64,000 bases of DNA from a virus. This document shows positions 1 to 63,659 of this stretch, piece by piece. The notes under the pieces were generated by a model, which had not been told where the DNA came from, made no database searches, and saw only the letters and a list, made by a program, of their open reading frames with translations. The position numbers were made by a program, and so were the translations under genes. Positions within the stretch are counted from its first letter, which is position 1, and every line of letters begins with the position of its first letter. The DNA lies in the IMG/VR virus record IMGVR_UViG_3300037808_001018; one strand, given 5' to 3'.

Positions 1-19
1 TTGGTTTGGTGTTCTAAAC
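1..19 (-). promoter_or_regulatory. truncated copy of the CA-rich (CCAAA)n leader cassette
   Basis: 1..16 ttggtttggtgttcta is identical to 955..970, which lies just upstream (coding sense) of the 697..945 start. This implies another minus-strand gene starting left of the window. Confidence 0.4.
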
Positions 20-84
20 TATTAAGCGTTGTTATCTCGGCAGCCGATTGGCCATCGGCTGTACTCAATGATCGGGGAGGGGCC

Positions 85-375
85 TTATTCCCCCGTCTCG
101 ACGAAGTGCTCGTTGCAGGCTGCCTCCCATGTCGCGCCATAGCGGCTGATATGATGGCTTATGCTCCGTCGGAATCGTCGCCATTCCGCATCCCGAGACG
201 ATATAGACTCCCTCCAGTCACTTCCGGTGCGAAAGTCACTACCCGACGCCACGAAATTATTGCGCTCGGCAGCTGATGCAAACACGTGATAATTGCCAAA
301 GCGCTCGCCTCGGCCATTAGATGCCACTCCGCACCAGTAATTAAATGCAACATATATTCTATTCGGTTCAATCAT
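85..375 (-). CDS. hypothetical small protein (97 aa from ATG 375)
   Basis: Part of ORF 85..444. The ATG at 373-375 is directly preceded on the coding strand by a (CCAAA)n leader. No recognisable domain. Confidence 0.4.
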   Translation of the reverse strand: MIEPNRIYVAFNYWCGVASNGRGERFGNYHVFASAAERNNFVASGSDFRTGSDWRESISSRDAEWRRFRRSISHHISRYGATWEAACNEHFVETGE

Positions 376-406
376 TTGTTTGGTTTGTTTGGTTTGGTTT
401 GGTTTA
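376..406 (-). promoter_or_regulatory. (CCAAA)n CA-rich 5' leader abutting a start codon
   Basis: Coding-strand sequence is taaaccaaaccaaaccaaacaaaccaaacaaATG. It is a pentanucleotide repeat with no purine-rich SD. Confidence 0.5.
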
Positions 407-661
407 CCTATCAATCCTAACGTGTGAGGATACCGTTTCCTCATCCCATAGCTTAGGCTCTGGAAATAAAACGGGCCTGCAGAAACCTTCCAAGATGTAG
501 CCGGCCTCTTGGCGCTCTCCTACCATAAAATGGTTGGAAATAGTGCAATCTGCCCCATGAAAATTAGTTCGATTTGGTACCCTAAACTGCAGGATATGGG
601 TGATCATTAAACCTTTCGATTTCTCTATCATTCGCACAATTGCTCTAGTTTTACTGTCCAT
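404..661 (-). CDS. hypothetical protein
   Basis: 85-aa ORF in the same orientation as its neighbours. No motif recognised. Confidence 0.4.
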   Translation of the reverse strand: MDSKTRAIVRMIEKSKGLMITHILQFRVPNRTNFHGADCTISNHFMVGERQEAGYILEGFCRPVLFPEPKLWDEETVSSHVRIDR

Positions 662-696
662 TCTCTTAAATGCTTAGGTTGTTGGTATGCTAGCGC

Positions 697-945
697 TTAA
701 CTATTGGTCCCTGTGATTGAATCAAGTTGAGGAACCCCGTAGTGGCTCCCAATAGCCACGGTGACTTCCTTCCCTTCGTAATTTTGGATAGAGTACCCAT
801 GCGAATGATCGACTTGAGTACGGAATTTGAATCCATGATTTACGCCTTCTTCGACGTAGGCTTCAAACCTCGGGTTACCTCTCCATGATGACGGTAAGCG
901 TTTGATGTTTTTCAGAACGCCCGTGTGCGATGTTATGTTTTTCAT
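697..945 (-). CDS. hypothetical protein
   Basis: 82-aa ORF. The ATG at 943-945 is preceded by a CCAAA-repeat leader. Confidence 0.5.
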   Translation of the reverse strand: MKNITSHTGVLKNIKRLPSSWRGNPRFEAYVEEGVNHGFKFRTQVDHSHGYSIQNYEGKEVTVAIGSHYGVPQLDSITGTNS

Positions 946-975
946 TTGTTTGGTTTGGTTTGGTGTTCTAGTGTT
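946..975 (-). promoter_or_regulatory. (CCAAA)n CA-rich 5' leader
   Basis: Coding-strand sequence is ctagaacaccaaaccaaaccaaacaaATG. It shares a 16-nt identity with 1..16. Confidence 0.5.
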
Positions 976-1345
976 TAGCTATTTCCTTAATTTGTGCCTT
1001 GCTAGGATTCTCGGCGAGGATCCCCCATTCCCACGACAAGATGCGATTCCCGCAATTTCCCCCGCAAATTGTGTCTTGTTCCGAAATTTCCCAAGCTTCC
1101 TCTTCACTCTTTCCCTCTGCTAGTGCTTCTTTAAAAGCTTCTTCTACTTGCTCGTTGCAGAGCAAGCCGGGCTCATTCTCTGCGATCCAATCGATACTTT
1201 CGTCGAGAGCTTCTTGAAGATTGTCGGCCCAAACCATAAGGCTTGTTTGGCCATAAGCGCCAAATTGAAGGATAAAACGGTTTTTAGTCCAGTGGCGATC
1301 ATCTCTGTTGATATAAGTAGGTTTCATTTCGTTTGTTGTTTTCAT
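968..1345 (-). CDS. hypothetical acidic protein
   Basis: 125-aa ORF, Glu/Asp-rich, tightly packed with neighbours. Confidence 0.5.
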   Translation of the reverse strand: MKTTNEMKPTYINRDDRHWTKNRFILQFGAYGQTSLMVWADNLQEALDESIDWIAENEPGLLCNEQVEEAFKEALAEGKSEEEAWEISEQDTICGGNCGNRILSWEWGILAENPSKAQIKEIAKH

Positions 1346-1349
1346 AATA

Positions 1350-1970
1350 TTATGCTGCTCTTAGTTGTTTTATGGTTAGTTTGATTTGTCCTAATTCGTT
1401 GCGCAATGCTTTCCACAACTGACAAGTTGTCGAGAAACCTATAGCTTCCGCCATGAAATCGGGTGCCAATCCTCCCTTGGCGGAAAAGGCGTTATTAAGG
1501 CCGCTTATATCGTCAGGATAAAACGCACGTTCCGCGATGGTTGCTCTAGAGCGTGCCTTGATTCGCCCTAAATGCTTTACCCGTCCTAGTGTTGAGGAAT
1601 CCCTAAGCGCTCTTTCTATCTCGGAAACGCCTTGCGCTTTGTATTGCGCCTTATCGCGTGCCATCGCTTGCACGTCTCTCAAATCTTGCCATGCAATACG
1701 CATGGCAATCGACATCGTGAGAGCGTAGGCTAAGCGCAATTGCCAAGCGCGACGCATGACGCCAGACAAATCAGAGACGCCATTGAACTTTGAATAGTCG
1801 AAATCGAATTCTGCTAGGGTTTCATTGCTTTCTTCCCAGTCGCGGTATTCCGTCCAAGCGATTTTTAAAGCCTGAGATAGGCTTGTTAAGCCGAATGGGT
1901 CGTCCTTAACTAGTTCCCAAGCGCGCTTCATGATAAGCGCCTTATATTGGGAATGGTTTAAACGGTTCAT
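1350..1970 (-). CDS. hypothetical protein with internal duplication
   Basis: 206-aa ORF. MKRAWELVKD..LKIAWTEYRD is repeated as MRRAWQLRLA..MRIAWQDLRD. The start abuts a GGTCTTACC motif. Confidence 0.55.
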   Translation of the reverse strand: MNRLNHSQYKALIMKRAWELVKDDPFGLTSLSQALKIAWTEYRDWEESNETLAEFDFDYSKFNGVSDLSGVMRRAWQLRLAYALTMSIAMRIAWQDLRDVQAMARDKAQYKAQGVSEIERALRDSSTLGRVKHLGRIKARSRATIAERAFYPDDISGLNNAFSAKGGLAPDFMAEAIGFSTTCQLWKALRNELGQIKLTIKQLRAA

Positions 1971-2125
1971 TGGTAAGACCAGTTTATACCAATTCTTACC
2001 ATAAGCAAATTAAAAGGCCCCTTTTATCGAAATAAATTAGGCCCTTTTTTCGCTATAAGTATAGCTATAGCAATAGCGCTATACTTACATATGCATAATA
2101 ATGTATAACTGCTAGGATATCCGAC

Positions 2126-2800
2126 TTAAACCGTAGCAACTGATGGTTGCGTGTGTGTGGTCGCTTGTCGTTGTCGTAGTGCCTTCTTCAGTCGTTTGCG
2201 TTGTGGTGACTGGTAAGCGCTCTTGGCTTGCTCCGGTGAGAAGGGAGCGCCGGTAGGGTCAAACTGGCCTTGCCGATTGCGTGGTCTGCCATCGGCGAAA
2301 TTGTAGTAGTGTTGTGCCGCTCTCCGCAGCACGTTGAAATCCGTGTCCCGCTCGTTGATAGCCCAACGGCGCAGGTCTTCAAATTCTGGTCGGCGCTCAC
2401 GCACTTTAGGCTTCTGTCTGGTCATGCCACCAGCTCGGCGTTTACGTTTCCAGGCAGCGGCTTGACCCGTGCGTTTGGATCGGGCTCGCTTGAAAAATTC
2501 ATCCTGCTTTCGCTTGGTCTTAAGGGCTTCGTTTTGTTTCTGGTAGTCGGCTAGTATCTTGGCGTTCTCTTTCCGCTCACTAGCTAGAGTGTGCCGCGTC
2601 TTCTTGGTCCTGGCCTGACGTGGTGGTGCCGTGGCTTTGCTGCCTTGGCTTGTGGTGAGTCTGGGTGCCGTCCGTGTGGTGGCTCGCAGTGGTGCGCGGC
2701 CACGCCTTCCACGGAGTAACTTCGCGATCAATAGCGACGATGCCGCTCCCCCAGATAAGAGAGCGGCATCGCGTTTTGAAATGCTATCGCGTGTGGCCAC
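2126..2800 (-). CDS. Arg/Lys-rich protein, member of the Gly/Ala-zipper-plus-basic family
   Basis: 224 aa. The N-terminus AALLSGGAASSLLIAKLLRGRRGR is followed by a long K/R-rich tail. Confidence 0.5.
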   Translation of the reverse strand: MATRDSISKRDAALLSGGAASSLLIAKLLRGRRGRAPLRATTRTAPRLTTSQGSKATAPPRQARTKKTRHTLASERKENAKILADYQKQNEALKTKRKQDEFFKRARSKRTGQAAAWKRKRRAGGMTRQKPKVRERRPEFEDLRRWAINERDTDFNVLRRAAQHYYNFADGRPRNRQGQFDPTGAPFSPEQAKSAYQSPQRKRLKKALRQRQATTHTQPSVATV

Positions 2801-2806
2801 GACTAA

Positions 2807-3238
2807 CTACGACCTGAACTGAGGAAGCCCTTTACGGCGCAAACGAAGGGCTGCTCGCAGCTTCGCCGCAACCGTAGCTGCCCGGCCTGAGACTGCGGCT
2901 TTCACTTGTCGACCGGTTTCCGCGACTTTGCGTCCCACTACGGTCGCGTTCTGACGCATGCCTGCAACGCTGGTGTTGCGACGGATTTTGCTTTTCATCA
3001 TTCTCTCAGCTTTTTCCGGCTTGATGCCCTTGTCAGTGTAGCTCTTAATCCCCGCATTGTAGCGCTTCTGGCCATATTTATACGCTCCATACCCACCTAC
3101 TCCAACGGCGACCTTCTTTCCAGTTCTGTCCTCCTCCTCTTCCTCCTTCCGTCGGAATTCATGAAACCCTCCGTTTGTGTTTTCAGCAAATTCCAATGCC
3201 TCATGGGCAATCGCAGCAAGTTCGGTGTAATCATTCAT
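2807..3238 (-). CDS. basic family protein with shared N-terminal peptide MNDYTELAAIAHEALEF
   Basis: 143 aa. The first 17 codons are nucleotide-identical to those of 3263..3532. Also has a GVGGYGAY Gly-rich segment and a basic C-terminus. Confidence 0.6.
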   Translation of the reverse strand: MNDYTELAAIAHEALEFAENTNGGFHEFRRKEEEEEDRTGKKVAVGVGGYGAYKYGQKRYNAGIKSYTDKGIKPEKAERMMKSKIRRNTSVAGMRQNATVVGRKVAETGRQVKAAVSGRAATVAAKLRAALRLRRKGLPQFRS

Positions 3239-3262
3239 GGTGTGTATGTTGTGTATGTTGTG

Positions 3263-3532
3263 TTACGAGGTTACTTTGACAACCTTGGCACGCTTGGGTT
3301 TCTGTCCTTTGCGATGCTTGCGGAAAGCCTCGGCTTTGCGCCTGACCTCGCCTGTGCGTCCCGTGTATTGATCAAGGCGAAGACGCTTCCCACCTTTTTT
3401 TACATGCCTAATAAGCAACGCCGCGCCCGTTAGTCCCGTCGCTGCCGTCGCTGCCTTAGCGGCTTTGTTATCCTTTTTCTCAAATTCCAATGCCTCATGG
3501 GCAATCGCAGCAAGTTCGGTGTAATCATTCAT
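3263..3532 (-). CDS. basic family protein with shared N-terminal peptide MNDYTELAAIAHEALEF
   Basis: 89 aa. AATAATGLTGAALLIRHVKKGGKR aligns with 14733..15074. Confidence 0.6.
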   Translation of the reverse strand: MNDYTELAAIAHEALEFEKKDNKAAKAATAATGLTGAALLIRHVKKGGKRLRLDQYTGRTGEVRRKAEAFRKHRKGQKPKRAKVVKVTS

Positions 3533-3563
3533 GACGTTAAGTTAGTTTCGTTGTCAAGCAAGG

Positions 3564-5033
3564 CTAGTTCCGTCCGTTAATTAACAGCAGTCTGTTAGAA
3601 GCTCGATTTGCTATCGGTGTACGCCCTCGATTTGCTATCGGTGTAGGCCCCGTTGTCTTTATAATTTTACTCCTACGCCTTCTCCGTGATGATCGCATTG
3701 CAGCGGGTTTTTTATTCACACTTTCTGATGGAGGCGTTGCCCCCGGTTTTTCGCGATTGCCACGTTGTTCGGTGCCACGGGGGCGGGTTGCTTCCCTTTG
3801 CGAGACTTGCTCTTTTCTTAGAGCGCTTCTAGCTGTTCTTTCGCCTGCCTCGGCTGCTTCGACTTTTTTCATTAAAGCATTCATTTTGCGGCGTGACATT
3901 CCTCGAACCACAAGGCCACTTGCTAGTATTCCACCTATCGTGGTTGCCATTGCAATCTTGTCCCTGTTAGCTTTTTTCTCTGACCATGTCTTTTCCCGGC
4001 GATTCCGTTTACGGGCTCCAGGGGCGCGGACACGGGCCACACGGCGCGAAACCGGCGTAATCTCCCAGTCTTCTTTGCTGGCGAATTCTAACAAACGCTC
4101 TGGCCCCGTCTTTTGCGGTAAAGCTTCAAATCCCATAACTCGACGACGAACGCTCCTAACGATGCGGTTACGGGCGTTGCGCTTTCCAATTGGTGTGGAT
4201 AGAGTCTTTTTCAACCAATCAAAATCTTCTTTAGCTGCCTTCTTGAGTCCACGGCGACCATTGCCTTTCCGATTAGCGGCGATGTAAGCCCCACTAGCTA
4301 ACCCAGCAACCACGGCAGCATCAAGCACGCCATCCTTGAAACGGGCGGATTCCCAAACACGCTTCTTTTCGCGTCCCGCTAAGTCTTTGCGCCGTCCGCG
4401 CCCGCGCGCAACGTCGCTGACATCTTGCGCGAGACGTTTGGACCGTTTAAGCGAGCCGCGCACCCTAGAAGACTCCGCACCCTTGAAATCATCTTCAAGA
4501 CGGTCGAATTCTGTCATAAGTTGGCCTTGATCAAATCTAAATATCTTTCGCCTAGCTTTTCTAAAGGACGGGAATGTGGTGAACTGCTCTTTCAAGGTCG
4601 CCCTCAACTTTCGCCTAATACTGCGAGGCATTTGCTTGGCCTGTTCCGCCGCTTTTGACACTTTTCGTAACTCATCCCTGGCAAGACTTGCCGTCTTCTG
4701 CATTTCATCATTAAATGCTTTGCTTGACTTGTTGGCTGCTTTGCTCGACTTTTTGGCCGCTTTGCTAGTTTCCTTGACGCTGGAGTTAAACGCATCGCTT
4801 GAGCGGCGAGCGGATCGCGCAACGTCTTTTGCCGTTGAATCAATTCCTTTGCTCAACTTGCCAAAGGATCGAGACGTGCGAAGCGCAGAGACACCTACAA
4901 GCGTCCCGCCCGCTCCAATACCTAGACCACCAACAATAGCAGCCCCATCACGGGCTTGCTCTAAGCGGCTACGTCTACGCGCTTCCTTCTTGTTAGCGCG
5001 GCGTTTCTTTCGTCTAGCGTTGCGGCTGGCCAT
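3564..5033 (-). CDS. large Arg/Lys-rich protein with three Gly/Ala-zipper-plus-basic blocks, directly downstream of the portal gene
   Basis: ORF 3564..5102. The ATG at 5031-5033 (MASRNARRKKRR) gives a 20-nt overlap with the portal stop. The blocks are GAAIVGGLGIGAGGTLVGVSALR, LDAAVVAGLASGAYIAANRKGNGRR and IAMATTIGGILASGLVVRGMSRRK. Confidence 0.55.
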   Translation of the reverse strand: MASRNARRKKRRANKKEARRRSRLEQARDGAAIVGGLGIGAGGTLVGVSALRTSRSFGKLSKGIDSTAKDVARSARRSSDAFNSSVKETSKAAKKSSKAANKSSKAFNDEMQKTASLARDELRKVSKAAEQAKQMPRSIRRKLRATLKEQFTTFPSFRKARRKIFRFDQGQLMTEFDRLEDDFKGAESSRVRGSLKRSKRLAQDVSDVARGRGRRKDLAGREKKRVWESARFKDGVLDAAVVAGLASGAYIAANRKGNGRRGLKKAAKEDFDWLKKTLSTPIGKRNARNRIVRSVRRRVMGFEALPQKTGPERLLEFASKEDWEITPVSRRVARVRAPGARKRNRREKTWSEKKANRDKIAMATTIGGILASGLVVRGMSRRKMNALMKKVEAAEAGERTARSALRKEQVSQREATRPRGTEQRGNREKPGATPPSESVNKKPAAMRSSRRRRRSKIIKTTGPTPIANRGRTPIANRASNRLLLINGRN

Positions 5034-6687
5034 TGATCGTTGGATTGTTTGCTTTCTGTGGGACCATCGCTTGAGCTTGTGGCAACGGCACTCCGAATAC
5101 ACTCACAAGATTGTTAATGGCCGAGTTCCGGTCAATAACGCCGGTCCCCACCTTCTCCAACAAGTCAAGTAACTCGGCAACACCCTTGTCCCCAATCTGC
5201 CCATGAATGGTAGGCTCTTCCGGCTCGCTGTTCGCGGCGGCTAGCATTTCCGTGGCCTGAACCATGTCCCGATTGATCATCTCAATAGGCACTTGATGAT
5301 CCCCGGCGATGTCGCGCATTTGCACAACCTCATCCGCCAGTTGTTCCGTGACATCGCGGAAATCTCCCCCTTGTTCCTCGATCATTTGACGACGTGTAAT
5401 GATACCCGCGTTAAGCAACGAGAGGTTGGCCGTGACTTCGTGGCCAATATCAGCGGTGATATGGCTAGCAAATTGCCAGTTCCCTTGACGCCATTCAGGG
5501 TGGCTTGGGATGTGCTTCAAAGCGATACCATTGGCGATCACTTTGTTTTTGATCCTGTCAAGCGCCTTATCGACTAGCATAGTCTGCCACCGATTGATAG
5601 CCCGCATGACTTGTTGACTTTCAAGCCTTGCCGTGACTCCTCCGAAACGTGAGAAGTCTGTAACAAATCCAATCGGGAGCCCTAAACCTTGCGCTATCTC
5701 AACCCGTAGAGTTTCTACCAGGTTCATAAAAGCGTTATTAGGCCGGTCTGGCCCATTGGCGAATGAGATGTCTTCACCTTCCCCTAACCGGACAATCTTG
5801 CCGGAAAAGGCGTCCATTTCCCCGGGGTTGGTTGGCGTTGGGTTCGTGTTCCATTGGTTCGCGCCCGTGTTCGCAAACGGATTCTTGCCCGAAATGAAAC
5901 CGGCGTAACTGGAAGCGAACTTGGCCGCTACCTTCTCGAAGTTTAGGACTTCATAGAGGTCACGGATGTGATTAATGACAGGAGCAAAGTAACTAACGCC
6001 ACGATAATCGTCAGCACGGTCAGGATCCCATAAATGCACAAAGTCATCGCGCTTAACTTCCCGATCCAACTCCATCCGACCGTGTGCCGTTCGTCTGTAA
6101 ATCCTGTAGCTAGAAACTTTCCCGCTCTTCTCGATGGTGAGACCAGCAAAGTAGGTTTTTCCTTTCTCAATCTCAACAGTCAGTTGGGGTTCATCGGGTG
6201 ATCCAATCCGGTCTCCCTCGATCAGTTCAAGGCCAACGGTGTTCCCGTTAGTGATGATGGCTAAACCACAATCGCCATCCCTAAGTAGCCCCCTAAAGGC
6301 TAAGCTCATCATTTTTTTGAAAGTGAAGCGGCCTGTGATGTCGGCGCTTTCCTTCGACCACGCATGGAAATAGTCTTCGTAGGCTCTGTCTGTCCTGGCG
6401 TCGCCCGTGCGGCTTTGATAAGATAATGTCCCTACCGTGTAGAGCGCGAGTTTATCAAGCAACCCCGACACAACCGGCGAATTACAGTCGGCACGCCTCG
6501 CCTCGGCCATGAGCTGGAGTTGCTCAGTACGGGCCGAGTAGTCAATCGGGTTGCTATACTCCCATCCGTTCGCTGGCTTGCGATCAGTAGAGTACTGATC
6601 CGCGCCGTCATACCGTGCAAACTGATAATTCTGGTGACGCTGCCGGTCTGCCTTCGACGGGGCCATGTAGATGGTTGACGTGTCCAT
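5014..6687 (-). CDS. phage portal protein, lambda gpB-like family
   Basis: 557 aa. Its size, its position after a gpW-like gene and downstream of a GpA-type terminase, and its overall sequence character match lambda-family portals. Confidence 0.75.
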   Translation of the reverse strand: MDTSTIYMAPSKADRQRHQNYQFARYDGADQYSTDRKPANGWEYSNPIDYSARTEQLQLMAEARRADCNSPVVSGLLDKLALYTVGTLSYQSRTGDARTDRAYEDYFHAWSKESADITGRFTFKKMMSLAFRGLLRDGDCGLAIITNGNTVGLELIEGDRIGSPDEPQLTVEIEKGKTYFAGLTIEKSGKVSSYRIYRRTAHGRMELDREVKRDDFVHLWDPDRADDYRGVSYFAPVINHIRDLYEVLNFEKVAAKFASSYAGFISGKNPFANTGANQWNTNPTPTNPGEMDAFSGKIVRLGEGEDISFANGPDRPNNAFMNLVETLRVEIAQGLGLPIGFVTDFSRFGGVTARLESQQVMRAINRWQTMLVDKALDRIKNKVIANGIALKHIPSHPEWRQGNWQFASHITADIGHEVTANLSLLNAGIITRRQMIEEQGGDFRDVTEQLADEVVQMRDIAGDHQVPIEMINRDMVQATEMLAAANSEPEEPTIHGQIGDKGVAELLDLLEKVGTGVIDRNSAINNLVSVFGVPLPQAQAMVPQKANNPTINGQPQR

Positions 6688-6932
6688 TAGCAGTTTAGGT
6701 TGACTCGGCCAACAGCCCCTCCACCATGGTTTCCGGCTTGGGATCGACGGGATAATTCAACTGCAAGAGCCTGGAGTCGGGTTTCAGTCTCCTCAACGCT
6801 CCTTTGATAGCTTTTCGACCCCACCGCTTGGCTCATAAAAGGCGTTGCAAGGACCTTGAGCAGGCGAGAACGCTCCTCGGCCAGTTCTTCGGCGGTGAAG
6901 TGCTGATAGAACTGCTCGAAACCGGATGCCAT
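6687..6932 (-). CDS. gpW-like head-to-tail joining protein
   Basis: 81 aa. The stop overlaps the portal start, as in the lambda W-B arrangement. Helical, EEL..R..L pattern. Confidence 0.45.
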   Translation of the reverse strand: MASGFEQFYQHFTAEELAEERSRLLKVLATPFMSQAVGSKSYQRSVEETETRLQALAVELSRRSQAGNHGGGAVGRVNLNC

Positions 6933-6970
6933 ATAGGTGCGCCAACGTCAATCTAGCTCATTCCAGACAT

Positions 6971-7327
6971 TTAAGCGTCAAGAGACGGCAACCCTTTGAT
7001 GACGCTTGCTGCATTGTCATCATCGCATTGTCCCTCGCGCTCAAGCATGAGTATTTCCGATTCAATCCGTGCCCGTTCCGCAGCAAGTTCGTTCTGCTTG
7101 GCGTTGTTCTCGCGGGCTTTCTCGGCTCTAACTTTCGAGTCCTGTATTCTGGCCAAAGTGACAAGCCTACCGGGTAGCCCTTGAATATTGTCAGAGACTT
7201 CGGCTAAATCGAAGAGACTGATGTTCGGATTTTTAAGCGTGGCGGAAGCTTCATCCAGCAACTTTGCGATTGTTAACAAGCGTCGGTTAATCTCGCCTTC
7301 GGGGATCGTTTCAGCTTCGATGTCCAT
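6971..7327 (-). CDS. hypothetical coiled-coil protein
   Basis: 118-aa ORF with a heptad-like charged C-terminal half. Confidence 0.45.
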   Translation of the reverse strand: MDIEAETIPEGEINRRLLTIAKLLDEASATLKNPNISLFDLAEVSDNIQGLPGRLVTLARIQDSKVRAEKARENNAKQNELAAERARIESEILMLEREGQCDDDNAASVIKGLPSLDA

Positions 7328-7343
7328 GTCTTTTCAATACGTG

Positions 7344-7778
7344 TCAACGGGCAGTCACACGGAATCCCCAGACAAGATTTATAATCTTGTCTTTGTCGAG
7401 CAGGGTGGGCCTTTCAGAACCTTTGCTTTGCTTGGCTAACAGCGTTTCAAATTCTTCCAGCCACCTTGCCAACTCCTCAAAGTGATCCTTGATCGAATTC
7501 GAGTAATCTCCAAGGCTAGGGAGCCCTGCCACCAGTTCGGCGGCTAGATACTTAGACAGAGCGGCTTTTGTGATCGGGTCCTCTACCCCCGTGAGATGCC
7601 CTTCAGGCAAATACCCCCGATTAATTAGCTCGCATTGCGCCAACCGGGTCATCGTGGTGGCACTTTGTGGGCGGCGGTCGGGGATAACACCCAACTGTTT
7701 CTCAGGTAACGGCTTCGGGTGTTTCTTCGATAGCAAAGTAACATCCGAAGCATCCGATACGGGGGTAAAAGGGTTCAC
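7344..7778 (-). CDS. hypothetical protein
   Basis: 144-aa ORF in the operon orientation. Confidence 0.45.
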   Translation of the reverse strand: MNPFTPVSDASDVTLLSKKHPKPLPEKQLGVIPDRRPQSATTMTRLAQCELINRGYLPEGHLTGVEDPITKAALSKYLAAELVAGLPSLGDYSNSIKDHFEELARWLEEFETLLAKQSKGSERPTLLDKDKIINLVWGFRVTAR

Positions 7779-7785
7779 GGGCTTG

Positions 7786-8094
7786 CTATTGAGCTAGTGG
7801 ACTGTCACTAACCGGCATGCCGTTAACCGTTGTAACCGGCGCAGGACTAGCTAGCGGGGATGCAGCAGCTTTCTTCTTCGCAGCCGCTTTCTTCTTCGCA
7901 ATTGGCTTTTCTCCAACAGGAATATCGACGCCGAGCTTGGCCCCCACATCTTGTAGTGTCCCTATGACGGCACAAGATGTGCTGGTGAGGGATAGGACGC
8001 ATTGACCCTCCCCCGATGCGGCGACCTGGACGATAGCCTCGGTGTTCAGGATAATATCGGCCCCGGTCGGTGATTTAAAATGTGCGTGTGACAT
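7786..8094 (-). CDS. hypothetical protein with AKKK-rich tail
   Basis: ORF 7786..8115 begins at a TTG. The first ATG is at 8092-8094 (MSHAHFKSP). The C-terminus is KPIAKKKAAAKKKAAASP. Confidence 0.4.
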   Translation of the reverse strand: MSHAHFKSPTGADIILNTEAIVQVAASGEGQCVLSLTSTSCAVIGTLQDVGAKLGVDIPVGEKPIAKKKAAAKKKAAASPLASPAPVTTVNGMPVSDSPLAQ

Positions 8095-8121
8095 ATAAGA
8101 CACACTCGTTGTCAAAAAGAA

Positions 8122-8162
8122 CGGCTCGTCCCAGGGAAATGAAAGAAACCTAGGACGAGCCG
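8122..8162. promoter_or_regulatory. 10-bp inverted repeat in a divergent intergenic region
   Basis: cggctcgtcc (8122-8131) pairs with ggacgagccg (8153-8162) across a 21-nt loop, between divergent starts at 8094 and 8241. Confidence 0.35.
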
Positions 8163-8240
8163 GGACTAACTTATGAACAGCGATAGACTGTTAGTTCGTC
8201 TTATGCGGTAAGTCAAGAACTTTGACGGGCGGTAAAAGGC

Positions 8241-8684
8241 ATGATCGAAAGTCTTGCCCTTCAAGTTCTTAGCCGAATCACCGAATCAAGCGTGATCGGT
8301 GGGACTGTTACGAGCCATACTCATTCGATTATGGTGCCGTTGGCAACCTCGGTCCAGGGGTTGTCGTCTGTTTACTCTGCCCAATGGGCAACGGCGACAT
8401 CCGTGACCCTCGATGCCGTCACCGATGCTTGTGGGAATGCTCTCAACATGTCAGGTGCCAAGCTTCGCCACTTCGCCCTCCAAGCGCCTGCCGCGAATGT
8501 TGCCGTGGTCGACTTTACGGGCAATTTCCACGGTGATGCCTTCGCCGGGCAACTTTGGCCAGGATCAGTCTATTCCGTGACCTTCCCACAACACGCCTCC
8601 CAAGCGGTGATCGATAACACGTTCGCCGTCGCTACCACCAGCGCGGATGCGAATAGCGTGATCAATGTGTTAGCGCTGGCCTAA
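8241..8684 (+). CDS. hypothetical protein (plus-strand island)
   Basis: 147-aa ORF rich in Ser/Thr/Ala/Val. Preceded by GGTAAG and GGTAAAAGG motifs. Confidence 0.45.
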   Translation: MIESLALQVLSRITESSVIGGTVTSHTHSIMVPLATSVQGLSSVYSAQWATATSVTLDAVTDACGNALNMSGAKLRHFALQAPAANVAVVDFTGNFHGDAFAGQLWPGSVYSVTFPQHASQAVIDNTFAVATTSADANSVINVLALA

Positions 8685-8697
8685 CTCTAATTATTGT

Positions 8698-9432
8698 ATG
8701 GCTAGTTTCAAAAGGCGAGGCGCTGCCCTCCGTAGGCTCAGACAAAACCAACGGCGACGGGCACTAAGGGATAAGGTTAAGGGCATTGATAGTAATAGCG
8801 GCATGCCTGCTGCTATTAGGGGCGCTTACGACAAATACGCCGATGGTTCGCTCCGTCGAGGTCGCGGGCTTTCAATGGGAACAACGAAACGCCTACGCCG
8901 GAACACGAAGATCAAAGCCAAGCGTTATCAAGATCAAAGCCAAGTCATCGTGGATGATCGCGACAAGCTTCGAGCTATCGTTTCCAAGGGTAGTTTCAAT
9001 ACGGAAATCGAACAAGCTATGCTAGGCGGAAATCGGCGCAGCATTCTCGCCCATGAGATCGGCCACATGAAAGATCGGGGGATGAAGAAGACTCTCAAGC
9101 GCAACACCCGCGTTCAAATTTCCGCAGTAATGGGCGAAATCAATGCCGCTAGCCTCTACGGCAGCCGCAATGCAAGATTTGCAAAGAGCATTCTCACGCG
9201 AGAGCGTACCGCTAACCGCAACGCCCTACGTGAACTCGTTCGGGCCAAGGCTAGCCGCCGCGAGATCGAGGATTTTAAAATCCAAGCACGACAAGGGTTC
9301 AATACCTATCGTCGCCAGCAAATCGGAGCCATCGTTGGCGACGATCAGGCGATTTTGTCAGCGTCAGACACTAAAAAGGTGATGAGGAAATTCCCTCACC
9401 TCCGAGAGGTTAAGGCGTTTTCCTCTCTCTAG
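8698..9432 (+). CDS. basic protein with HExxH zinc-metallopeptidase motif
   Basis: 244 aa. Contains SILAHEIGHMKD, an HEIGH motif of the style seen in ImmA/IrrE or M48 peptidases. The rest is very Arg/Lys-rich. Confidence 0.4.
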   Translation: MASFKRRGAALRRLRQNQRRRALRDKVKGIDSNSGMPAAIRGAYDKYADGSLRRGRGLSMGTTKRLRRNTKIKAKRYQDQSQVIVDDRDKLRAIVSKGSFNTEIEQAMLGGNRRSILAHEIGHMKDRGMKKTLKRNTRVQISAVMGEINAASLYGSRNARFAKSILTRERTANRNALRELVRAKASRREIEDFKIQARQGFNTYRRQQIGAIVGDDQAILSASDTKKVMRKFPHLREVKAFSSL

Positions 9433-9664
9433 CAATCGCCTCAATTGGTTTTGTCATGTCTCGAATGATGTTCTGATTCCCTAACGCGCTACGGACGAAG
9501 TACGTGCGAAGCATTTCGTCAGTTTCCATATCCTCGGTAACATCCGAAAGAATCGCGAAAATAAGCTTTTCTACAGAGCAATCAAGGCCATCAACTAGCC
9601 CCTCACATCGGTCCATAAGTTTGGGTGGAATGGAAAGTTCAAGGGTGTTTTTTTGGGGGGTCAT
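9410..9664 (-). CDS. ribbon-helix-helix-like small protein
   Basis: 84 aa. The N-terminus NTLELSIPPKLMDRCEGLV fits a beta-strand plus helix RHH pattern. Confidence 0.4.
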   Translation of the reverse strand: MTPQKNTLELSIPPKLMDRCEGLVDGLDCSVEKLIFAILSDVTEDMETDEMLRTYFVRSALGNQNIIRDMTKPIEAIARERKTP

Positions 9665-9780
9665 AAGTAGTATTAAATTTTAGGTGTTCTGTATTATCTA
9701 CTCATACCAGGTAAGCCCGGTCAAAGCTAAATCCAGCAAAATAATTCCTTTTTTGTTCTCGAAAATTGGGGAAAGAGTCA

Positions 9781-9824
9781 GATGAAAGGTTGTTCTTAGC
9801 ATTATTCAATAACCAAGCGTGAAT
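9781..9824 (+). repeat. 44-bp direct repeat, copy 1 (relic of an XRE-gene 3' end)
   Basis: gatgaaaggttgttcttagcattattcaataaccaagcgtgaat matches 10296..10339 with 2 mismatches. Confidence 0.9.
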
Positions 9825-9980
9825 GGAAACCTTTGTTTCTTCATCCATTGAAGGCGATATTCCACCACTTCGGGTTTGCCCTTTTTCGAAAAGAACGTGA
9901 ATCCAAGGACACCCCCACCTAACTCCGTACCGAAATGGCCGATTGACTTTGGTTTAGTTCTCTTTAGCGTAAGCAGACAT

Positions 9981-14119: not shown

Positions 14120-14736
14120 ACCTTTCACTGTCCTTTGTTAATACCCCCCGTGGTAATGGCCTTAGCATCCCTGCTGAAACCAATCTGAAAGATTGGACTC
14201 AGCTCATGCATGGGCTCGCCCAGGTTAAGGCCCAATATCACTCTTGCCTGGGGGATGCGATCCGGTTCGGCAGGAAGAAGTTCGTCTCGGATGCCGATGA
14301 TGTTATTGAGCAAATGGAACTGCCCTTTGACGATGTTCAGCGTGCTGAGAGCGCTGCTTTGGCCCCTGCTTCCAAGCGAACGCTGCCGGCTGAGATTTAC
14401 CATGTCGCCAACAAAGAGGCTAAGGAGGACGTAGACCGCGATCAGTGGCTTGAGAAGGCAAAGAAGGAAGGACTTAGCGCCCGTGAGCTTCAGCACTCGA
14501 TGCGTATGGGCCGCGTAATACGGCAGGGTGAGATTGATAGCCTAAATGGCAAAGATAGCGCCATCCCTACTCTGCGGCCAGTGGGGACCGGCTTTGAGCG
14601 GTGGTTTCGTAGTGTTGGTGGCACTGCGGCTATTGCCCAACTACCTGAAGAAAACAAGGCGTCAATATTATTGCAACTTCAACCAATTTACGATTTGTGC
14701 TGGGGTATTGACCCTGAGTTGGCCGACGAAGATTAA
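14116..14736 (+). CDS. hypothetical protein
   Basis: The ATG at 14116 overlaps the upstream stop (ATGA), suggesting translational coupling. Confidence 0.45.
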   Translation: MNLSLSFVNTPRGNGLSIPAETNLKDWTQLMHGLAQVKAQYHSCLGDAIRFGRKKFVSDADDVIEQMELPFDDVQRAESAALAPASKRTLPAEIYHVANKEAKEDVDRDQWLEKAKKEGLSARELQHSMRMGRVIRQGEIDSLNGKDSAIPTLRPVGTGFERWFRSVGGTAAIAQLPEENKASILLQLQPIYDLCWGIDPELADED

Positions 14737-15074
14737 GAACGCTTACTCTTCTTAATTACGGCTTTGATCCGCTTTTCAGAGTCGGAGAGGATTTCGTTTT
14801 GTTTCTTCGCTGCCCGGTCCATCCCTTCCGCGAACCCCTTTTTGCGGGCTTTAGCTTTTTGGGAAGCCATATTGCCGCGCCTGCTGAAAGCCTTGCGTTC
14901 TGAACGCTCTCCTTGCCTTGTTCCACGTTTCTTGCCCACTCGGAAGGCTCGCTTTTTATCGAGCTTACCGCGCTTCAAAGCGCGTTTCAGGCGATTGCGA
15001 TAAACGAGGGCAGTGATCCCGGTCAACCCCGTGACTGTTCCTGCTGCTTTTTCGCGTTCAGTGATTTCGAACAT
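14733..15074 (-). CDS. basic family protein (Gly/Ala-zipper plus Arg/Lys tail)
   Basis: ATG at 15072-15074 (MFEITEREKAAGTVTGLTGITALVYRNRLKR). Aligns with residues 16-55 of 3263..3532. Confidence 0.5.
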   Translation of the reverse strand: MFEITEREKAAGTVTGLTGITALVYRNRLKRALKRGKLDKKRAFRVGKKRGTRQGERSERKAFSRRGNMASQKAKARKKGFAEGMDRAAKKQNEILSDSEKRIKAVIKKSKRS

Positions 15075-53019: not shown

Positions 53020-53550
53020 TTAGGCTTTTTTGCGTGCCTTCTCATCGGCCACGCGTTTCTTGCCGTTTCTCAAGGCCAAGGCCCCACCTGCTACTGTGCC
53101 TACTAAACCACCTGCTACAGCCCTTCTTAGCATACGCCTGTCTGCCTTTAGCCTGATCCTTGCCTTATTGTGTGCGTCGGACGTGTCATACCCTTCAGGC
53201 ACTTTCGTTAACCCTTTTTTCTTTAATTGCTTATTCACAAACTTGCGTTCAGTCCTGGCCGCTGATCCTGCGCCGGCAACCGCCCCTGCAAGCGACCCGG
53301 CTGTAGTAACAGCCCCATCCTTAGCCGCGTCCCTTTTGCGATAGACCACGCCCGCGTTTTGTGCGCGTGTGGCGTTTATTCCTCCAACGGCTACTCCTGG
53401 GACTCCTCCCGTGAGATAACCTACACCAGCACCCCGTGCGAGATTGCCTCGGGGGGATTGACCTTTTTTATTCTTACGGGTGTATTCTCGGGATGATGCA
53501 GCAAAGTAAAACTCTGCTAACCCTTCTCTTTCAGCGTTTGTAATGTTCAT
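53020..53550 (-). CDS. basic family protein (Gly/Ala-zipper blocks plus Arg/Lys)
   Basis: 176 aa. Blocks are REGLAEFYF, GAGVGYLTGGVPGVAVGGI, AGSLAGAVAGAGSAARTERK and AVAGGLVGTVAGGALALRNGKKR. Confidence 0.5.
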   Translation of the reverse strand: MNITNAEREGLAEFYFAASSREYTRKNKKGQSPRGNLARGAGVGYLTGGVPGVAVGGINATRAQNAGVVYRKRDAAKDGAVTTAGSLAGAVAGAGSAARTERKFVNKQLKKKGLTKVPEGYDTSDAHNKARIRLKADRRMLRRAVAGGLVGTVAGGALALRNGKKRVADEKARKKA

Positions 53551-60038: not shown

Positions 60039-60371
60039 TTAGAAAAGTCTTTCCCGGCGTGGGTTCTCCGCACTAATATTAAGACGAATCCCCGCGCCGC
60101 CAAGATAAGTGATCGAAACCACGCGTCCACGGATGCCTTGCCATTGGCAAATAGTCCCTTTGGCAGGCGTGCAGATTGCCTGAGTAGCGGCACTCATGTG
60201 GATTTGATAAGACGCCAATGATGTCTTGCCGCCAACCACAAGTTCATTGGTTTGCTCGACTGGATCCACCACGGCTTGGACTTCAAAGTTGCCCACAATC
60301 ACGGGTTCCGCCATGATGTTGTCCAGCGACTCCAGGTCGGCGGACCATGCGTTGTCGAATATGCTAGGCAA
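60039..60371 (-). CDS. head-tail adaptor-like protein
   Basis: 110 aa. The call rests on its position after the capsid genes and its beta-rich sequence. Confidence 0.4.
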   Translation of the reverse strand: MPSIFDNAWSADLESLDNIMAEPVIVGNFEVQAVVDPVEQTNELVVGGKTSLASYQIHMSAATQAICTPAKGTICQWQGIRGRVVSITYLGGAGIRLNISAENPRRERLF

Positions 60372-60927
60372 ACCTATTCTCCCGATATTCTACATTAGCA
60401 CGTTTGGCGCGTTCGTTCCTTCGCTTCTTGTCGACCATATTGCCCGTTGAAGCACCTACTAGCCCAGCAGTGGCCAATCCAGCCTTTCCAATCTTTCCTT
60501 TCTTGAGCCGTTGGCGTAAGAGTAATGCGGCTGCGGTAGCTGAAACACCACCACTGATCGCACCTGCGTTTCGTTTCGCCGATGCCTTCGCTCCTTTCTC
60601 CTTGCGCAACGAAATCGATGTGCCGACCCTTTGCCCCCGATATTTATGTTCCCCTGCTAAAACCACTCCTTGGTAACCGCCACCTTTAGCCGCTTTGCTT
60701 TTTCGGTATCGGTGCTCAGAAGTGTAAGCGCCCTTCGCCTCAAATTCCGTCTTGTTGTCATTCTTCAGCAACTTGAGCAGGCGTTTCCGTTTCTTGATCA
60801 GAACAGCGGCGATAGTCGCGCCTATCAAGGCTTCAGCCCGGCCTTTGCTCCGGTTGCGCTTGTCCCTTTCTTCAATCTCATTGGCGGAAATGACAGTCTG
60901 ATAATCCTTCTGAGGTAACCGGGCCAT
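60364..60927 (-). CDS. basic family protein
   Basis: 187 aa. Blocks are AEALIGATIAAVLIKKRKRLLK, GAISGGVSATAAALLLRQRLKKGK and AGLATAGLVGASTGNMVDKKRRNERAKR. Confidence 0.5.
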   Translation of the reverse strand: MARLPQKDYQTVISANEIEERDKRNRSKGRAEALIGATIAAVLIKKRKRLLKLLKNDNKTEFEAKGAYTSEHRYRKSKAAKGGGYQGVVLAGEHKYRGQRVGTSISLRKEKGAKASAKRNAGAISGGVSATAAALLLRQRLKKGKIGKAGLATAGLVGASTGNMVDKKRRNERAKRANVEYRENRFA

Positions 60928-60994: not shown

Positions 60995-61957
60995 TTAAGC
61001 GTAATTGGTGGAAAGCAACTCCACACTATCAGTATCCAGAATCTTTTCAATACTGTTCGTTCGCACTCGAAGGATCGTGCCGAGACGCTCCTTATCATAC
61101 CACGAATCCGTAGTGAAAATCCCCCCCGGTGAATCCGCTTTCCAACACAAAGTCCGGCCAACGCCGCCAGAAGCAAAGTCACCAGTCTCTACATTTGCTA
61201 GGGCAATATAGTCATTGGACCAAACGTTGTTCAGGCTAGCCGACTGGCCTTTGATGGCCGTATCGATGGTTGCAGCCGCGATCATCACGTTCTGGATTCG
61301 GAACGAGCCGCCAACATGTGACAACTCAATCTTACGGTTACCCGTTCCAGCGCCAGTTGGGCCGTATAGGTAGTTCTGCAATTTGGTGGTCCGTGAAATA
61401 CGGTTCCACACTGGTTGCGTCATGATAAGCGTGTTCGCCACAAGCGCCTTACGTTGGAGTCTCTCTTGAGCCTCTAGCAAGTCTTTGGCAAAATCAATCG
61501 TGCCGATGTTAACCTCAGTCAATGCCGTGGTCAATGCCGTGGTGTTGAAGGTGCTAGTATCCTGCACGATGTTCGCCACCCGTTGCTCGCGATTGAGTTG
61601 CATGTAACGATAAATCAATTTCGCTGTAATGCGCTCTTGAGAAAAGAATGAACTCATCTCCTTGGCAACGCCGTCGTCGATACGCTCAGTGATACCGCGC
61701 TCTTCGCACTGGTAGTTATCCCATTCGTGTTTCCGTGAGATTTCTGGGAAACTTCCAGTCACGCCGCGCAAGTCTGCGCCAGCTTTAAGGAGTTCGCCGG
61801 ACTCACGATAAAAACGTGGAAACCGTCCTGCACGCGCTGCCACTTTTTGGGCAGGCATGATCTTATCCGCGATGTAGAATTGATCCGCTTTACGAGACTC
61901 TTCCAGGTAGGAAGAAATCTCCCGGCGACTCACCGCTCCGTCTAAATTACTAGGCAT
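60995..61957 (-). CDS. major capsid protein (lambda gpE-like)
   Basis: 320 aa. Its position after protease/scaffold and decoration genes, and the strong terminator that follows, support the call. The sequence character is like the gpE family. Confidence 0.65.
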   Translation of the reverse strand: MPSNLDGAVSRREISSYLEESRKADQFYIADKIMPAQKVAARAGRFPRFYRESGELLKAGADLRGVTGSFPEISRKHEWDNYQCEERGITERIDDGVAKEMSSFFSQERITAKLIYRYMQLNREQRVANIVQDTSTFNTTALTTALTEVNIGTIDFAKDLLEAQERLQRKALVANTLIMTQPVWNRISRTTKLQNYLYGPTGAGTGNRKIELSHVGGSFRIQNVMIAAATIDTAIKGQSASLNNVWSNDYIALANVETGDFASGGVGRTLCWKADSPGGIFTTDSWYDKERLGTILRVRTNSIEKILDTDSVELLSTNYA

Positions 61958-62432: not shown

Positions 62433-63659
62433 CTAGGCGCTAAGTTGAGTGATTCCTTTTGATGCGAGGTGCTTGTCGTAAAGCGTCGGGAAGTCCTCAT
62501 TGATTCGCTCGGATGCGTCTGAGAAATTGATATTCTCGGTTTTCATCAGGCTATCAACGCGGGCCTCAAATTCGGTCGCGTTTGGATCGTTTGCCACGTC
62601 ACCCGATCCAATGCTAGGGGCACTGATACCAGCGTCATTGCCCGTGCGAATGGACTCTCGTAGAGCGTCATTCTCTGCAATCGCGACCTTATACTTTTCA
62701 GCCAACTCGGTAACGCTCTCTTCAGCGGCGTTAAATTCAGCCTGGGCTTGATCTTGTTCAGCCGCTGCGATCATCGCCTCACGCTCTTCGAGAAGAAAGT
62801 CGAGTTTGTCGTTCAATGCTGCAAACTCAGCACTTTCACCAGCAAGAACCGGTTCAGCTTCTTGCTCTGCCTCGGCCTCGGAATAGCCTGGCGAGTCGTC
62901 ATAGGAACCGTCATCAGCTTCAGCTTCGGCAGTTCCTTCGACTTCAGCGAGGAGCGCCTCAACGGCGTCGTCGTCCATGTCATCGATGATAGCGTCGATT
63001 TGCTCGTCGCTTAGTTCTTCATCCTCGGCAATGGCTTCGTTAAATCCTGTCAGCACACTGGAACGGAACTCTTCAAGCTCCGTTAGTTTTTCGCCAACAT
63101 GGGATTGAAACTCTGCTAGAGCTTTGAGGATGTCCGCATTACTAGGGTTGCTTGAATCCATATCCACGGGCGAGGCGTCAACATCCTCTTTGGCGGAAAA
63201 TAATCCGGTAGTGTTCGCGGCAGGCGCGGCCACCCAATCCACGCTGACTAATTTGGCGACACGGGCGTATTTTTGATCGCCTATTTGCTCTGGTTGGCCG
63301 CGAAATGATGCGGATAATCCGATTCCTGCGGGCATGCGTTCGGCCATCTCGATGAGGTGATCAAACTTTTCATGCGACTTGAGTAGGTTCAGGTCGGCTC
63401 GGAGCCTGTTATCGTCTTGGCGAAAATTATTGAGATAGCCCACCACGGCATCAGCTCCGCTCCCATGGTTGAGCTTAACGGGCACGCTGCCCATTTCCAC
63501 GGCGAGGTCATGCATTTGGCGCACGCAACAATCGTCAACGTGCAAGCTATGGCCCACTGCTTCGATCCCGCCCTCGATGACTGAGACGCCGCGAATAACG
63601 CCTTCCTTGCGGTTGATCCCGTCAAAGCCGCGTGAAGCCTCTAATTGGTATAGTGACAT
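62433..63659 (-). CDS. prohead protease (HK97 S78-like) fused to an acidic scaffold-like C-terminal domain
   Basis: The N-terminal ~160 aa contain VKLNHG..VVGYL..DDNRLRADLNLL..GLSASF, which fits the S78 His/Ser pattern. The C-terminal ~240 aa are Glu/Asp/Ala-rich and helical. Confidence 0.6.
   Translation of the reverse strand: MSLYQLEASRGFDGINRKEGVIRGVSVIEGGIEAVGHSLHVDDCCVRQMHDLAVEMGSVPVKLNHGSGADAVVGYLNNFRQDDNRLRADLNLLKSHEKFDHLIEMAERMPAGIGLSASFRGQPEQIGDQKYARVAKLVSVDWVAAPAANTTGLFSAKEDVDASPVDMDSSNPSNADILKALAEFQSHVGEKLTELEEFRSSVLTGFNEAIAEDEELSDEQIDAIIDDMDDDAVEALLAEVEGTAEAEADDGSYDDSPGYSEAEAEQEAEPVLAGESAEFAALNDKLDFLLEEREAMIAAAEQDQAQAEFNAAEESVTELAEKYKVAIAENDALRESIRTGNDAGISAPSIGSGDVANDPNATEFEARVDSLMKTENINFSDASERINEDFPTLYDKHLASKGITQLSA

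Follow-up and report, generated by a model that had tools for sequence, protein, structure and literature searches.

Background

Phage proteins that travel in the head shape the first minutes of an infection, through protection of the DNA, crossing of the envelope and disarming of defences, and detailed knowledge of them comes from a handful of model phages. Tape measure proteins, with their glycine-rich segments, and the DNA pilot protein H of phiX174 accompany the DNA and are regarded as forming a conduit through the membrane. Polyvalent proteins, as described by Iyer, Burroughs, Anand, de Souza and Aravind (2017, PMC5512222), are large, are encoded beside portal or terminase genes and are predicted to be packaged and injected; variable enzyme domains are fused in them to a constant part, and the InPase domain was defined in that paper, in which the words 'glycine' and 'transmembrane' do not occur. 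In phage T4 a head holds about 1,000 molecules of internal proteins, which enter via a capsid targeting sequence and whose lysines touch DNA phosphates (PMC3012670). Ejection proteins of the phiKZ/SPN3US type are described, in two reports (PMC7411985, PMC10052503), as processed by the prohead protease. Here we analyse a set of strongly basic proteins encoded in IMG/VR virus record IMGVR_UViG_3300037808_001018, a stretch of 64,000 nucleotides (nt) that we call the window, and in particular four proteins, D, C, B and A, whose genes follow the portal gene, belong to a set conserved in a group of uncultured phages, and in our opinion most likely encode cargo of the head.

A first-pass annotation, made from the sequence alone, had proposed that seven open reading frames (ORFs) of the window form one dispersed family with a common Gly/Ala-plus-basic block, and that their products are internal head or ejection proteins. 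We label these ORFs A (2126-2800), B (2807-3238), C (3263-3532), D (3564-5033), E (14733-15074), F (53020-53550) and G (60364-60927); an eighth, H (8698-9432), had been added as compositionally similar. All seven, A to G, are indeed present at these positions, each on the minus strand.

A conserved gene cluster behind the portal

The portal gene (5014..6687, minus strand) was recognised by a PF05136 Phage_portal_2 match on an identical product and by tblastn matches to portal genes. Its stop and the D gene overlap by 20 nt, and the cluster begins at the portal stop codon. The same arrangement was found in about 20 loci, in the order portal, giant basic protein, B-like gene or genes where present, A-like gene, protease-scaffold, a protein of 120-240 residues (decoration) and major capsid protein (MCP). 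The loci that keep it are L001, L006, L007, L009, L010/L011, L022, L023 and 13 further metagenome loci. Their giant post-portal proteins have 500-1,570 residues and 1-8 blocks of the strict kind defined below, and their protease-scaffold proteins, of about 400 residues, have a conserved N-domain and an acidic coiled-coil C-half.

These relatives were reached by three routes: via portal and MCP in IMG/VR (L001, L006, L007, L009, L010), via an Akkermansiaceae metagenome-assembled genome (L011) and via a D profile in metagenomes (L022, L023, L026-L042). A first metagenome scan with portal patterns gave no relatives, scans of IMG/VR with D, G or F as single queries gave no matches, and among 50,697 deposited phage genomes there is no close relative, nor any near-identical DNA in INPHARED.

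The annotation had placed the four genes directly after the portal, where protease and scaffold genes are expected. The first half of this is right. As to the second, the order in the window is interrupted: accessory genes follow A, and several kilobases (kb) of them precede the protease gene (7.5 kb in the variant contig L002). This accessory region is variable; it corresponds to 1-2125 plus 63660-64000 of the window, to 13162-20460 of L002 (with DUF932 and DUF7222) and to 1-2927 of L012.

D (3564..5033, minus strand; 489 residues, net charge +84) is an orthologue of the giant post-portal protein. A word-indexed search had at an earlier stage returned only 11 homologous proteins; an exhaustive HMMER search with a D profile returned 319 representative clusters at E<=1e-3, and 193 at E<=1e-30. 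The family is thus to be found in related phages, where the annotation had proposed to look for it, with the gene order kept in about 20 loci. Many of its members are 900-1,888 residues long and carry the D-like region at the C-terminus. Two modules are conserved, "DAADVLRGKPRxxDxSGRKKKREWEKSWF+" and "FSTPAxRLLxFDxxAxxAGWDVRDPRGRSARVFAPGSRxRxRREKxWHEKxENERKLW", each followed by a Gly/Ala helix. Both are present in the window protein. Module 1 (4266..4373, minus strand; residues 221-256) consists of GREKKRVWESARFKDG, a Gly/Ala helix and a basic tail, where relatives have 'GRKKKREWEKSWF+'. Module 2 (3885..4082, minus strand; residues 318-383) consists of LLEF followed by ASKEDWEITPVSRRVARVRAPGARKRNRREKTWSEKKANRDK, again with helix and basic tail; the columns of its counterpart in relatives, 'GWDVRDPRGRSARVFAPGSRxRxRREKxWHEK', are invariant. 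All profiles for the modules, the B-family and the A-family were built from relatives only, without window sequences; the two modules match the module hidden Markov model (HMM) with independent E-values (iE) of 7.5e-7 and 7.4e-6. Pfam, PHROG and PDB hold no match to the D family itself, and its profile, run against the sequences of PDB, came back empty.

An important feature of the family is the fusion of enzyme domains to the N-terminus of this basic part. By Pfam, InPase, a typical domain of virion-packaged polyvalent proteins, stands there in 6 of the 38 long members as well as in P0010 (E 8.5e-56) and L034 (7.5e-45); DUF6321 was found in 5 of the 38 and DNA_ligase_OB_2 in one. The giant of L009 has an LRAT-like domain at its N-terminus (Pfam E 1.6e-5, above the cut-off), and that of L006 a HExxH domain, recognised by motif and pairwise similarity. 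Most members have at most one recognisable enzyme domain per protein. In addition, a KxDG motif like DNA ligase motif I was noticed in the giants of L028 (5597-7702) and L035 (4345-7110) and in a separate gene of L009 (5478-6407), as EPKVDGVYA, SPKLDGVYA and EIKWDGYR respectively; the ligase-like N-termini of the two giants were seen by eye, and we dropped them when Pfam gave no confirmation at E<=1e-3.

The three smaller genes of the cluster, all on the minus strand, have their own relatives. C (3263..3532, 89 residues) combines a helix, MNDYTELAAIAHEALEF, at its N-terminus with one block and a basic tail; its kin are B and the D module. In B (2807..3238, 143 residues), a B-family orthologue, the N-terminal helix ends in F, and an acidic linker, GYGAYKxG and a basic region come after it. 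A (2126..2800, 224 residues) has an N-terminal block and, C-terminally, NF followed by ADGRPRNRQGQFDPTGAPFSPEQAKSAY, the hallmark of the A-family, which in relatives is the last cluster gene before the protease; the motif matches proteins of L027, L033, L029, L010, L009, L001 and L022.

How far do these similarities amount to homology? The module HMM ("basic, W-x-E-K, Gly/Ala helix, basic") matches D twice and C with an E-value of 3.2e-5; B (0.05) and gene E (0.12) are marginal, and F and G have bias-dominated domain matches only. The B-family HMM covers B over nearly its full length (1e-6) and gives 0.0036 for C and 0.79 for gene E. A is marginal against the A-family HMM (0.1, domain iE 0.028), yet it has "F-ADGRPRNRQGQF...P....AY", a highly specific signature by which the last gene of the cluster is recognised in relatives. 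Judged by these profiles, D, C and B are homologous to conserved families, and A is so more weakly, by motif and position. None of the eight ORFs produced an above-threshold match when scanned against Pfam and PHROG.

An all-against-all alignment, also suggested by the annotation, is clear for B and C, 82% identical over the first 22 residues (E-value 5e-10), and shows little or only noise for other pairs; it was the profiles that added the links of D, C and B. The annotation had taken an alignment of C with gene E as proof of homology. We cannot confirm this: the alignment (50% over 32 residues) has an E-value of 0.008 in a database of eight sequences, as A with G has 0.007, and gene E is not significant against the profiles. 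The first 52 nt of B (3187-3238, minus strand) and of C (3481-3532, minus strand) are identical, while the remainder of both genes differs, which suggests that the N-terminal helix was recently duplicated or gene-converted.

Evolution of D is fast and modular, and comparison of variants shows a much quicker turnover for the cluster than for the portal gene. The portal of the mosaic variant P0003/L005 is 99% identical to that of the window, yet its D orthologue (736-2449 of L005) is a mosaic, which has lost the Ser/Lys-rich repeat and block 1 (in the window at 4881..4946, minus strand, residues 30-51, GAAIVGGLGIGAGGTLVGVSAL then RTSR) and has gained a new 'ALLAYGAAGGFSAYALIRMLRAKR' block. It is followed by a truncated C-like ORF (MKDYTELAAIAHEALNKK... 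and a stop) and then by an F-like gene.

The genes are real. Between A and its counterpart in L002 (97-99% identical to the window) there are 8 synonymous and 0 non-synonymous differences. The ratio of non-synonymous to synonymous rates (dN/dS) against L004 is 0.27 for D and 0.03 for the portal; it is 0.44 for F, and the parts of F conserved between variants are the N-terminal motif and the blocks. F recurs in identical form on at least 16 contigs and G on at least 11, from several samples. All ORFs tested for it are under purifying selection. Because of this conservation we discard the reading of A to G as spurious ORFs, and the worry attached to the annotation, that the ORFs might not be conserved, is answered by purifying selection together with the conserved post-portal gene order.

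The Gly/Ala block

The block repeated in A to G is a Gly/Ala-rich helix of 11-22 residues followed by Lys/Arg. In its strict form we define it as at least 11 residues of G/A/S/T/V/L/I/M with G+A of at least 35% and at least 2 K/R within the next 7 residues. There are 11 such blocks in A to G (1,421 residues) and one in the 69 other window genes (18,898 residues); shuffling of each member leads one to expect about 0.2 in total for the seven. The proteins have 21-33% Lys+Arg, 19-32% Gly+Ala and net charges from +14 to +84. Thus the shared block proposed by the annotation exists, with the reservation that B has no strict block and instead a degenerate, Tyr-containing GYGAYK stretch (GVGGYGAYKYGQKR).

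In 151 representatives of the D family we counted 925 blocks, with a median of 6 and a maximum of 16 per protein and a median length of 15 residues. A GxxxG-type pattern is present in 815 of the 925. The annotation had described a basic run downstream of the Gly/Ala stretch. Downstream Lys/Arg are indeed there, but the upstream flank is basic as well: on both sides the charge is about +0.25 per residue, and both flanks are enriched in aromatic residues, with W/F at the block edges.

The sole strict block outside A to G, ALSAGSIAGVIASLL followed by KLKKK, lies in the tape measure protein (48085-51714, minus strand), which also holds a more hydrophobic Gly-rich segment, GGVVAGVTLLAGVLLTL.

The L-x-E-F motif and the putative protease-scaffold

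A second common feature is a short motif that ends in Phe. In the neighbourhood of Phe these proteins favour L at -3, T at -2, E at -1 and S/D at +1 and +2, with an enrichment of 2-3 fold; the same flank pattern was looked for in the other window genes and not found. Counted as [LIVMAT]x[EQHND]F[ASGDEQ] against shuffle expectation, the motif occurs 32 times in the cluster proteins of relatives (5.6 expected), 17 times in seven protease-scaffold orthologues (5.3 expected) and 23 times in the other window genes (20.6 expected). In cluster proteins and in the putative protease-scaffold, and not elsewhere, L-x-E-F with a small or acidic residue after it is 3-6 fold enriched, and "EF" occurs 9 times in A to G, where 2.0 are expected.

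The motif stands at the end of the N-terminal helix in B, C and F and in relatives of the B- and A-families; A, D and G have no N-terminal L-x-E-F. It also stands between modules of the giants, as four "TPAxxVxxF" copies in L010 and as LLEF followed by ASKEDWEI in D. The A-family core, (A)D(S/G)RPRNxxGxF, comes directly after the initiator Met in L027 and L033 and directly after an F motif in A, L029, L010, L001 and L022, as would be expected of a processing site or of a domain boundary. In three B-family proteins (L006 6450-6929, L009 6418-7023, L022 4943-5476) the motif of the N-terminal helix is repeated at the extreme C-terminus, for instance with 'ELDAELDKALTKF' opening the L009 protein and 'LEAELDQALTKFSAKG' closing it, so that the basic core is bracketed by two copies.

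The putative prohead protease-scaffold (62433..63659, minus strand) has the presumed protease in residues 1-160 and then an acidic coiled-coil scaffold domain with several x-E-F motifs. Invariant residues are H37, K62, N64, H65, S116, D141 and PAAN..G.F154, and F154, an instance of the Phe motif, ends the protease N-domain; a near-invariant "TEF", another instance, lies about 45 residues from the C-terminus. The scaffold half has 21% D+E, a net charge of -56 and a conserved C-terminal tail. It is because of the position, the invariant residues and this acidic coiled-coil half with its tail that we regard the protein as the putative protease. PHROG 'head maturation protease' matches are weak and confined to single orthologues (E-values 1e-3 to 2e-3), and the S78 type named by the annotation finds no support in any library. 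Its further proposal, that a targeting peptide may be trimmed by this protease, receives statistical backing from the enrichment of L-x-E-F both in the cluster proteins and in the scaffold half; the protease is not demonstrably S78.

Given a motif common to cluster proteins and scaffold, one may ask if D, C, B and A are themselves assembly factors, core or scaffold proteins that co-assemble with portal and scaffold, are degraded at L-x-E-F and are gone before or during DNA packaging. Their long-helix, low-complexity character and the location of the genes between portal and protease-scaffold in about 20 loci would agree with this as well. We nevertheless hold it to be improbable. Scaffold proteins, the scaffold half here included, tend to be acidic, and proteins with net charges of +14 to +84 are therefore unlike them; moreover, fusions to InPase, LRAT-like and HExxH domains make little sense if the proteins stay in the producing cell.

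In a more far-reaching idea the giants would be polyproteins, cut by the prohead protease at L-x-E-F into many small cationic glycine-zipper peptides. These would serve in the head as a 'protamine' that neutralises and organises the DNA, and on ejection as oligomeric pores in the host membrane, escorting the DNA and the enzymes, with B, C, A, F and G as single units. We mention it as a long shot; if true, tailed phages would have a means of delivering DNA that has not been described for them.

DNA, membranes and the physical character of the blocks

We estimated the apparent free energy of membrane insertion (dGapp) on the Hessa scale in its position-independent form, for the best segment of each member. 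The blocks have values of +0.8 to +5.6 kcal/mol and the tape measure segment +0.2, in comparison with -1.7 to -0.3 kcal/mol for the most hydrophobic segments of the window, which we take as true transmembrane helices. On these figures the blocks do not qualify as classical transmembrane helices; like the tape measure segment they are marginally hydrophobic, and with basic residues on both flanks a multi-block protein breaks the positive-inside rule. An AlphaFold2 (AF2) model of D consists of long helices with a single predicted beta hairpin (residues 324-336, the conserved WEITPVSRRVARVRAP).

These values bear on two other readings. It could be argued that the proteins only condense DNA by neutralising its charge, in the capsid or during replication, as 'protamine'- or histone-like proteins whose Gly/Ala helices serve self-association and have no membrane role. 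Their extreme charge and the basic flanks on both sides of every block speak for it, as do the lysines of T4 internal proteins, which touch DNA phosphates, and the presence of gene E in a run read as a replication module, away from the head genes. On the other hand, W/F are enriched at the block edges, and the conserved W-x-E-K and W-F resemble interfacial anchors. The idea is largely compatible with cargo and differs from it only in the events after ejection; as an account of its own we find it rather unlikely.

The annotation had also named membrane-active glycine-zipper peptides as an alternative. Their place of action might be the cell that produces the phage or carries it as a lysogen, with a part in lysis or superinfection exclusion or as a toxin, and the virion would then not contain them at all. 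The GxxxG-type pattern of the blocks and sub-threshold matches to the Pfam families Gly-zipper_YMGG and Gly-zipper_Omp in one relative are in favour, yet the insertion energies and the basic flanks on both sides are not those of classical transmembrane helices, the genes are tightly packed in the late structural operon, and what looks from the translations like a separate lysis cassette lies at 31174-33370. We consider this very improbable. Membrane activity of the blocks may still be part of the cargo mechanism.

A proposed role as head cargo

Our preferred reading, which we hold with slightly better than even confidence, is that D, C, B and A are head-internal cargo or ejection proteins delivered with the DNA, with the motif as a targeting or cleavage signal. 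It is drawn from the coupling of these head-operon genes to the portal, the extreme basicity, the enzyme fusions and the motif common with the scaffold. The corresponding suggestion of the annotation was thus the best supported of those available, by the gene order in about 20 loci and by the enzyme fusions in relatives of D.

The following course of events can be imagined. D, C, B and A would be packed in the head and exit with the DNA as cargo of the 'polyvalent protein' type, with D as the core member. The fused InPase, LRAT-like and HExxH enzymes would be of use only inside the host. In the head the basic flanks would lie on the packaged DNA and the Gly/Ala helices would pack against each other; after ejection these helices might insert into a membrane as oligomers. 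L-x-E-F would mark a protein for joint assembly with the scaffold, for cleavage by the prohead protease, or for both. F and, more weakly, G may be extra lineage-specific copies in the late structural operon.

Several observations weigh against this view and should be stated openly. By Pfam, the D protein of the window itself has no enzyme domain, and neither Pfam nor PHROG reveals MuF or another known head-incorporation domain. Isolated phages lack the D family, as its member P0005 gave no tblastn match in INPHARED. The product of 62433-63659 has no Pfam, NCBIfam or PDB match, a profile scan of PDB and NCBIfam returned coiled-coil noise, and a single-sequence AF2 model of its protease domain is unusable, with a predicted local distance difference test (pLDDT) score of 39. 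The model of D is likewise of low confidence (pLDDT 61.8, predicted template modelling score 0.28), and Foldseek against PDB found only coiled-coil noise. Homology of E and G to other members is not demonstrable. Finally, the motif is degenerate: window members have 4 full matches, and in L023 its Phe is replaced by Leu (RLVEL followed by A). It could be a mere helix-capping or packing feature.

Genes E, F, G and H

How much of the dispersed family remains once the post-portal genes are set aside? F (53020..53550, minus strand; 176 residues) begins with MNITNAEREGLAEFYF, has two strict blocks and lies just upstream of the putative tail tube gene. Relatives have no counterpart at that position, so it is an extra copy specific to the lineage of the window. 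It aligns with the ORF that follows D in L005 (40% identity over 67 residues, E-value 2e-8) and therefore has a paralogue within the post-portal cluster. A word-based homologue search for F gave only variants that are 85-96% identical.

G (60364..60927, minus strand; 187 residues) has three strict blocks and lies between the genes of the MCP (60995..61957, minus strand; phrog_1005 major head protein, E-value 4.2e-26) and of the head-tail adaptor; in relatives the adaptor follows directly after the MCP, with no counterpart of G in between. By profiles it has no significant sequence link to the other members, with which it has the architecture in common. Neither F nor G has relatives outside this phage species.

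For gene E (14733..15074, minus strand; 113 residues) membership is doubtful. It has one weak block (dGapp +5.6 kcal/mol) and closes a minus-strand gene run behind a gene with a Pfam AAA_25 ATPase-domain match, a run which we read as part of a replication module. Gene E is probably unrelated to the post-portal proteins.

One can go further and regard most of the resemblance as compositional convergence, with only the post-portal set related, and E, G and perhaps F as unrelated basic proteins that happen to have a Gly/Ala stretch. The profile values of gene E (0.12-0.79), the bias-dominated domain matches of F and G and the lack of relatives of these two outside the species speak for it. Against it stand the alignment of F with the post-portal ORF of L005, the near confinement of the block to A to G (one in 69 other genes) and the conservation of precisely the blocks and the N-terminal motif of F between variants. 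We would put its chances well below even, while taking it more seriously than any other alternative discussed here. The single dispersed family of the annotation is accordingly to be reduced: D, C and B, and A less clearly, belong by homology with conserved families, F has its post-portal paralogue, and E and G have the architecture only.

H is of a different kind. It is a basic protein of 244 residues (8698..9432, plus strand) encoded between the portal-upstream genes and the terminase, with a HExxH (HEIGH) zinc-protease motif and without a block, and we reject it as a family member. Its Pfam Peptidase_M48 match (E-value 0.004) is below the cut-off. Pairwise it resembles the N-terminus of the L006 giant (9e-4), with HExGH and 'E+TAN+NAL' in common.

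Genome context

The window is not a closed circle, a possibility that we rejected since L012 continues past 64000. This continuation and the 7.5 kb gap in L002 show the window to be a permuted part of a larger genome, which exceeds 67 kb. On this comparison of contigs, it is cut inside the accessory region, and the head module is split across both of its ends.

A tyrosine-integrase-like gene (29663-30856, minus strand) and a probable lysis cassette of an amidase-like and small hydrophobic proteins (31174-33370, minus strand), both recognised from translations only, suggest a temperate phage. The sole relative found on a bacterial genome contig is L011, in the Akkermansiaceae genome mentioned above. 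A scan of 1-16000 for promoters and terminators gave nothing above chance.

Two further features may be recorded. At 40607-46120 (minus strand) there is an acidic fibre-like protein of 1,837 residues with many near-identical tandem units of about 60 residues (PVDSVAGKTGVVTLDGDDITETVDHNWLTDAEQTAIAANT...DRHT.N.NRAILDGII). At 53810-59109 (plus strand) a two-gene insert lies amid the minus-strand structural operon; one product has 1,585 residues and a PTL_trimer (PF26696) match, and the product called at this position in a related contig (L013/L018) has only 238.

Comparison with known systems

Polyvalent proteins are a close parallel to the D family. D adjoins the portal gene, in the same place in about 20 loci, and some family members have InPase. 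The constant part is different, as it is not MuF, portal or another listed domain and consists of C-terminal basic glycine-zipper modules; nor are there two or more enzyme domains per protein, relatives having at most one and D of the window none.

The T4 proteins IPI-III are, like those described here, small and basic, and the N-terminal helix ending in L-x-E-F in B, C, F and the B-family relatives is a candidate counterpart of their targeting sequence; by this analogy the motif would load the proteins into the procapsid, mark them for cutting, or both. Its L-x-E part resembles the L/I-x-E rule of T4 gp21. There is no sequence similarity to IPI-III by PHROG or Pfam, the Gly/Ala helix modules are repeated here, and cleavage is something that we only infer. 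In contrast to phages of the T4 and phiKZ types, this one has an HK97-like head, a fused protease-scaffold and a siphovirus-like genome.

With SPP1 gp7 and Mu gpF (MuF) the proteins share the location of the gene right after the portal and the expected role of a portal-associated, DNA-binding head protein; PF04233 had no Pfam or PHROG match among the window members and 10 proteins of relatives. With tape measure segments and protein H of phiX174 they share weakly hydrophobic Gly/Ala helices with charged flanks, and the phage's own tape measure has one block. They differ in being encoded in the head module, in being far more basic and in having up to 16 blocks per protein; the PHROG tape measure match (E-value 0.029) is no homology. 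The GxxxG-type periodicity of small residues is also that of the Pfam glycine-zipper clan (PF13441, PF13488), for which there is no match in the window and 18.8 and 17.3 bits in the L010 giant, against cut-offs of 28.9 and 25.

Injected internal and polyvalent proteins are already known as a kind, whereas the D family, the basic glycine-zipper module and L-x-E-F as a candidate signal are undescribed in the resources searched. A constant basic glycine-zipper part with swappable enzyme heads offers a sequence handle for finding injected effectors in metagenomes, and the candidate packaging or cleavage signal might serve for loading foreign proteins into capsids.

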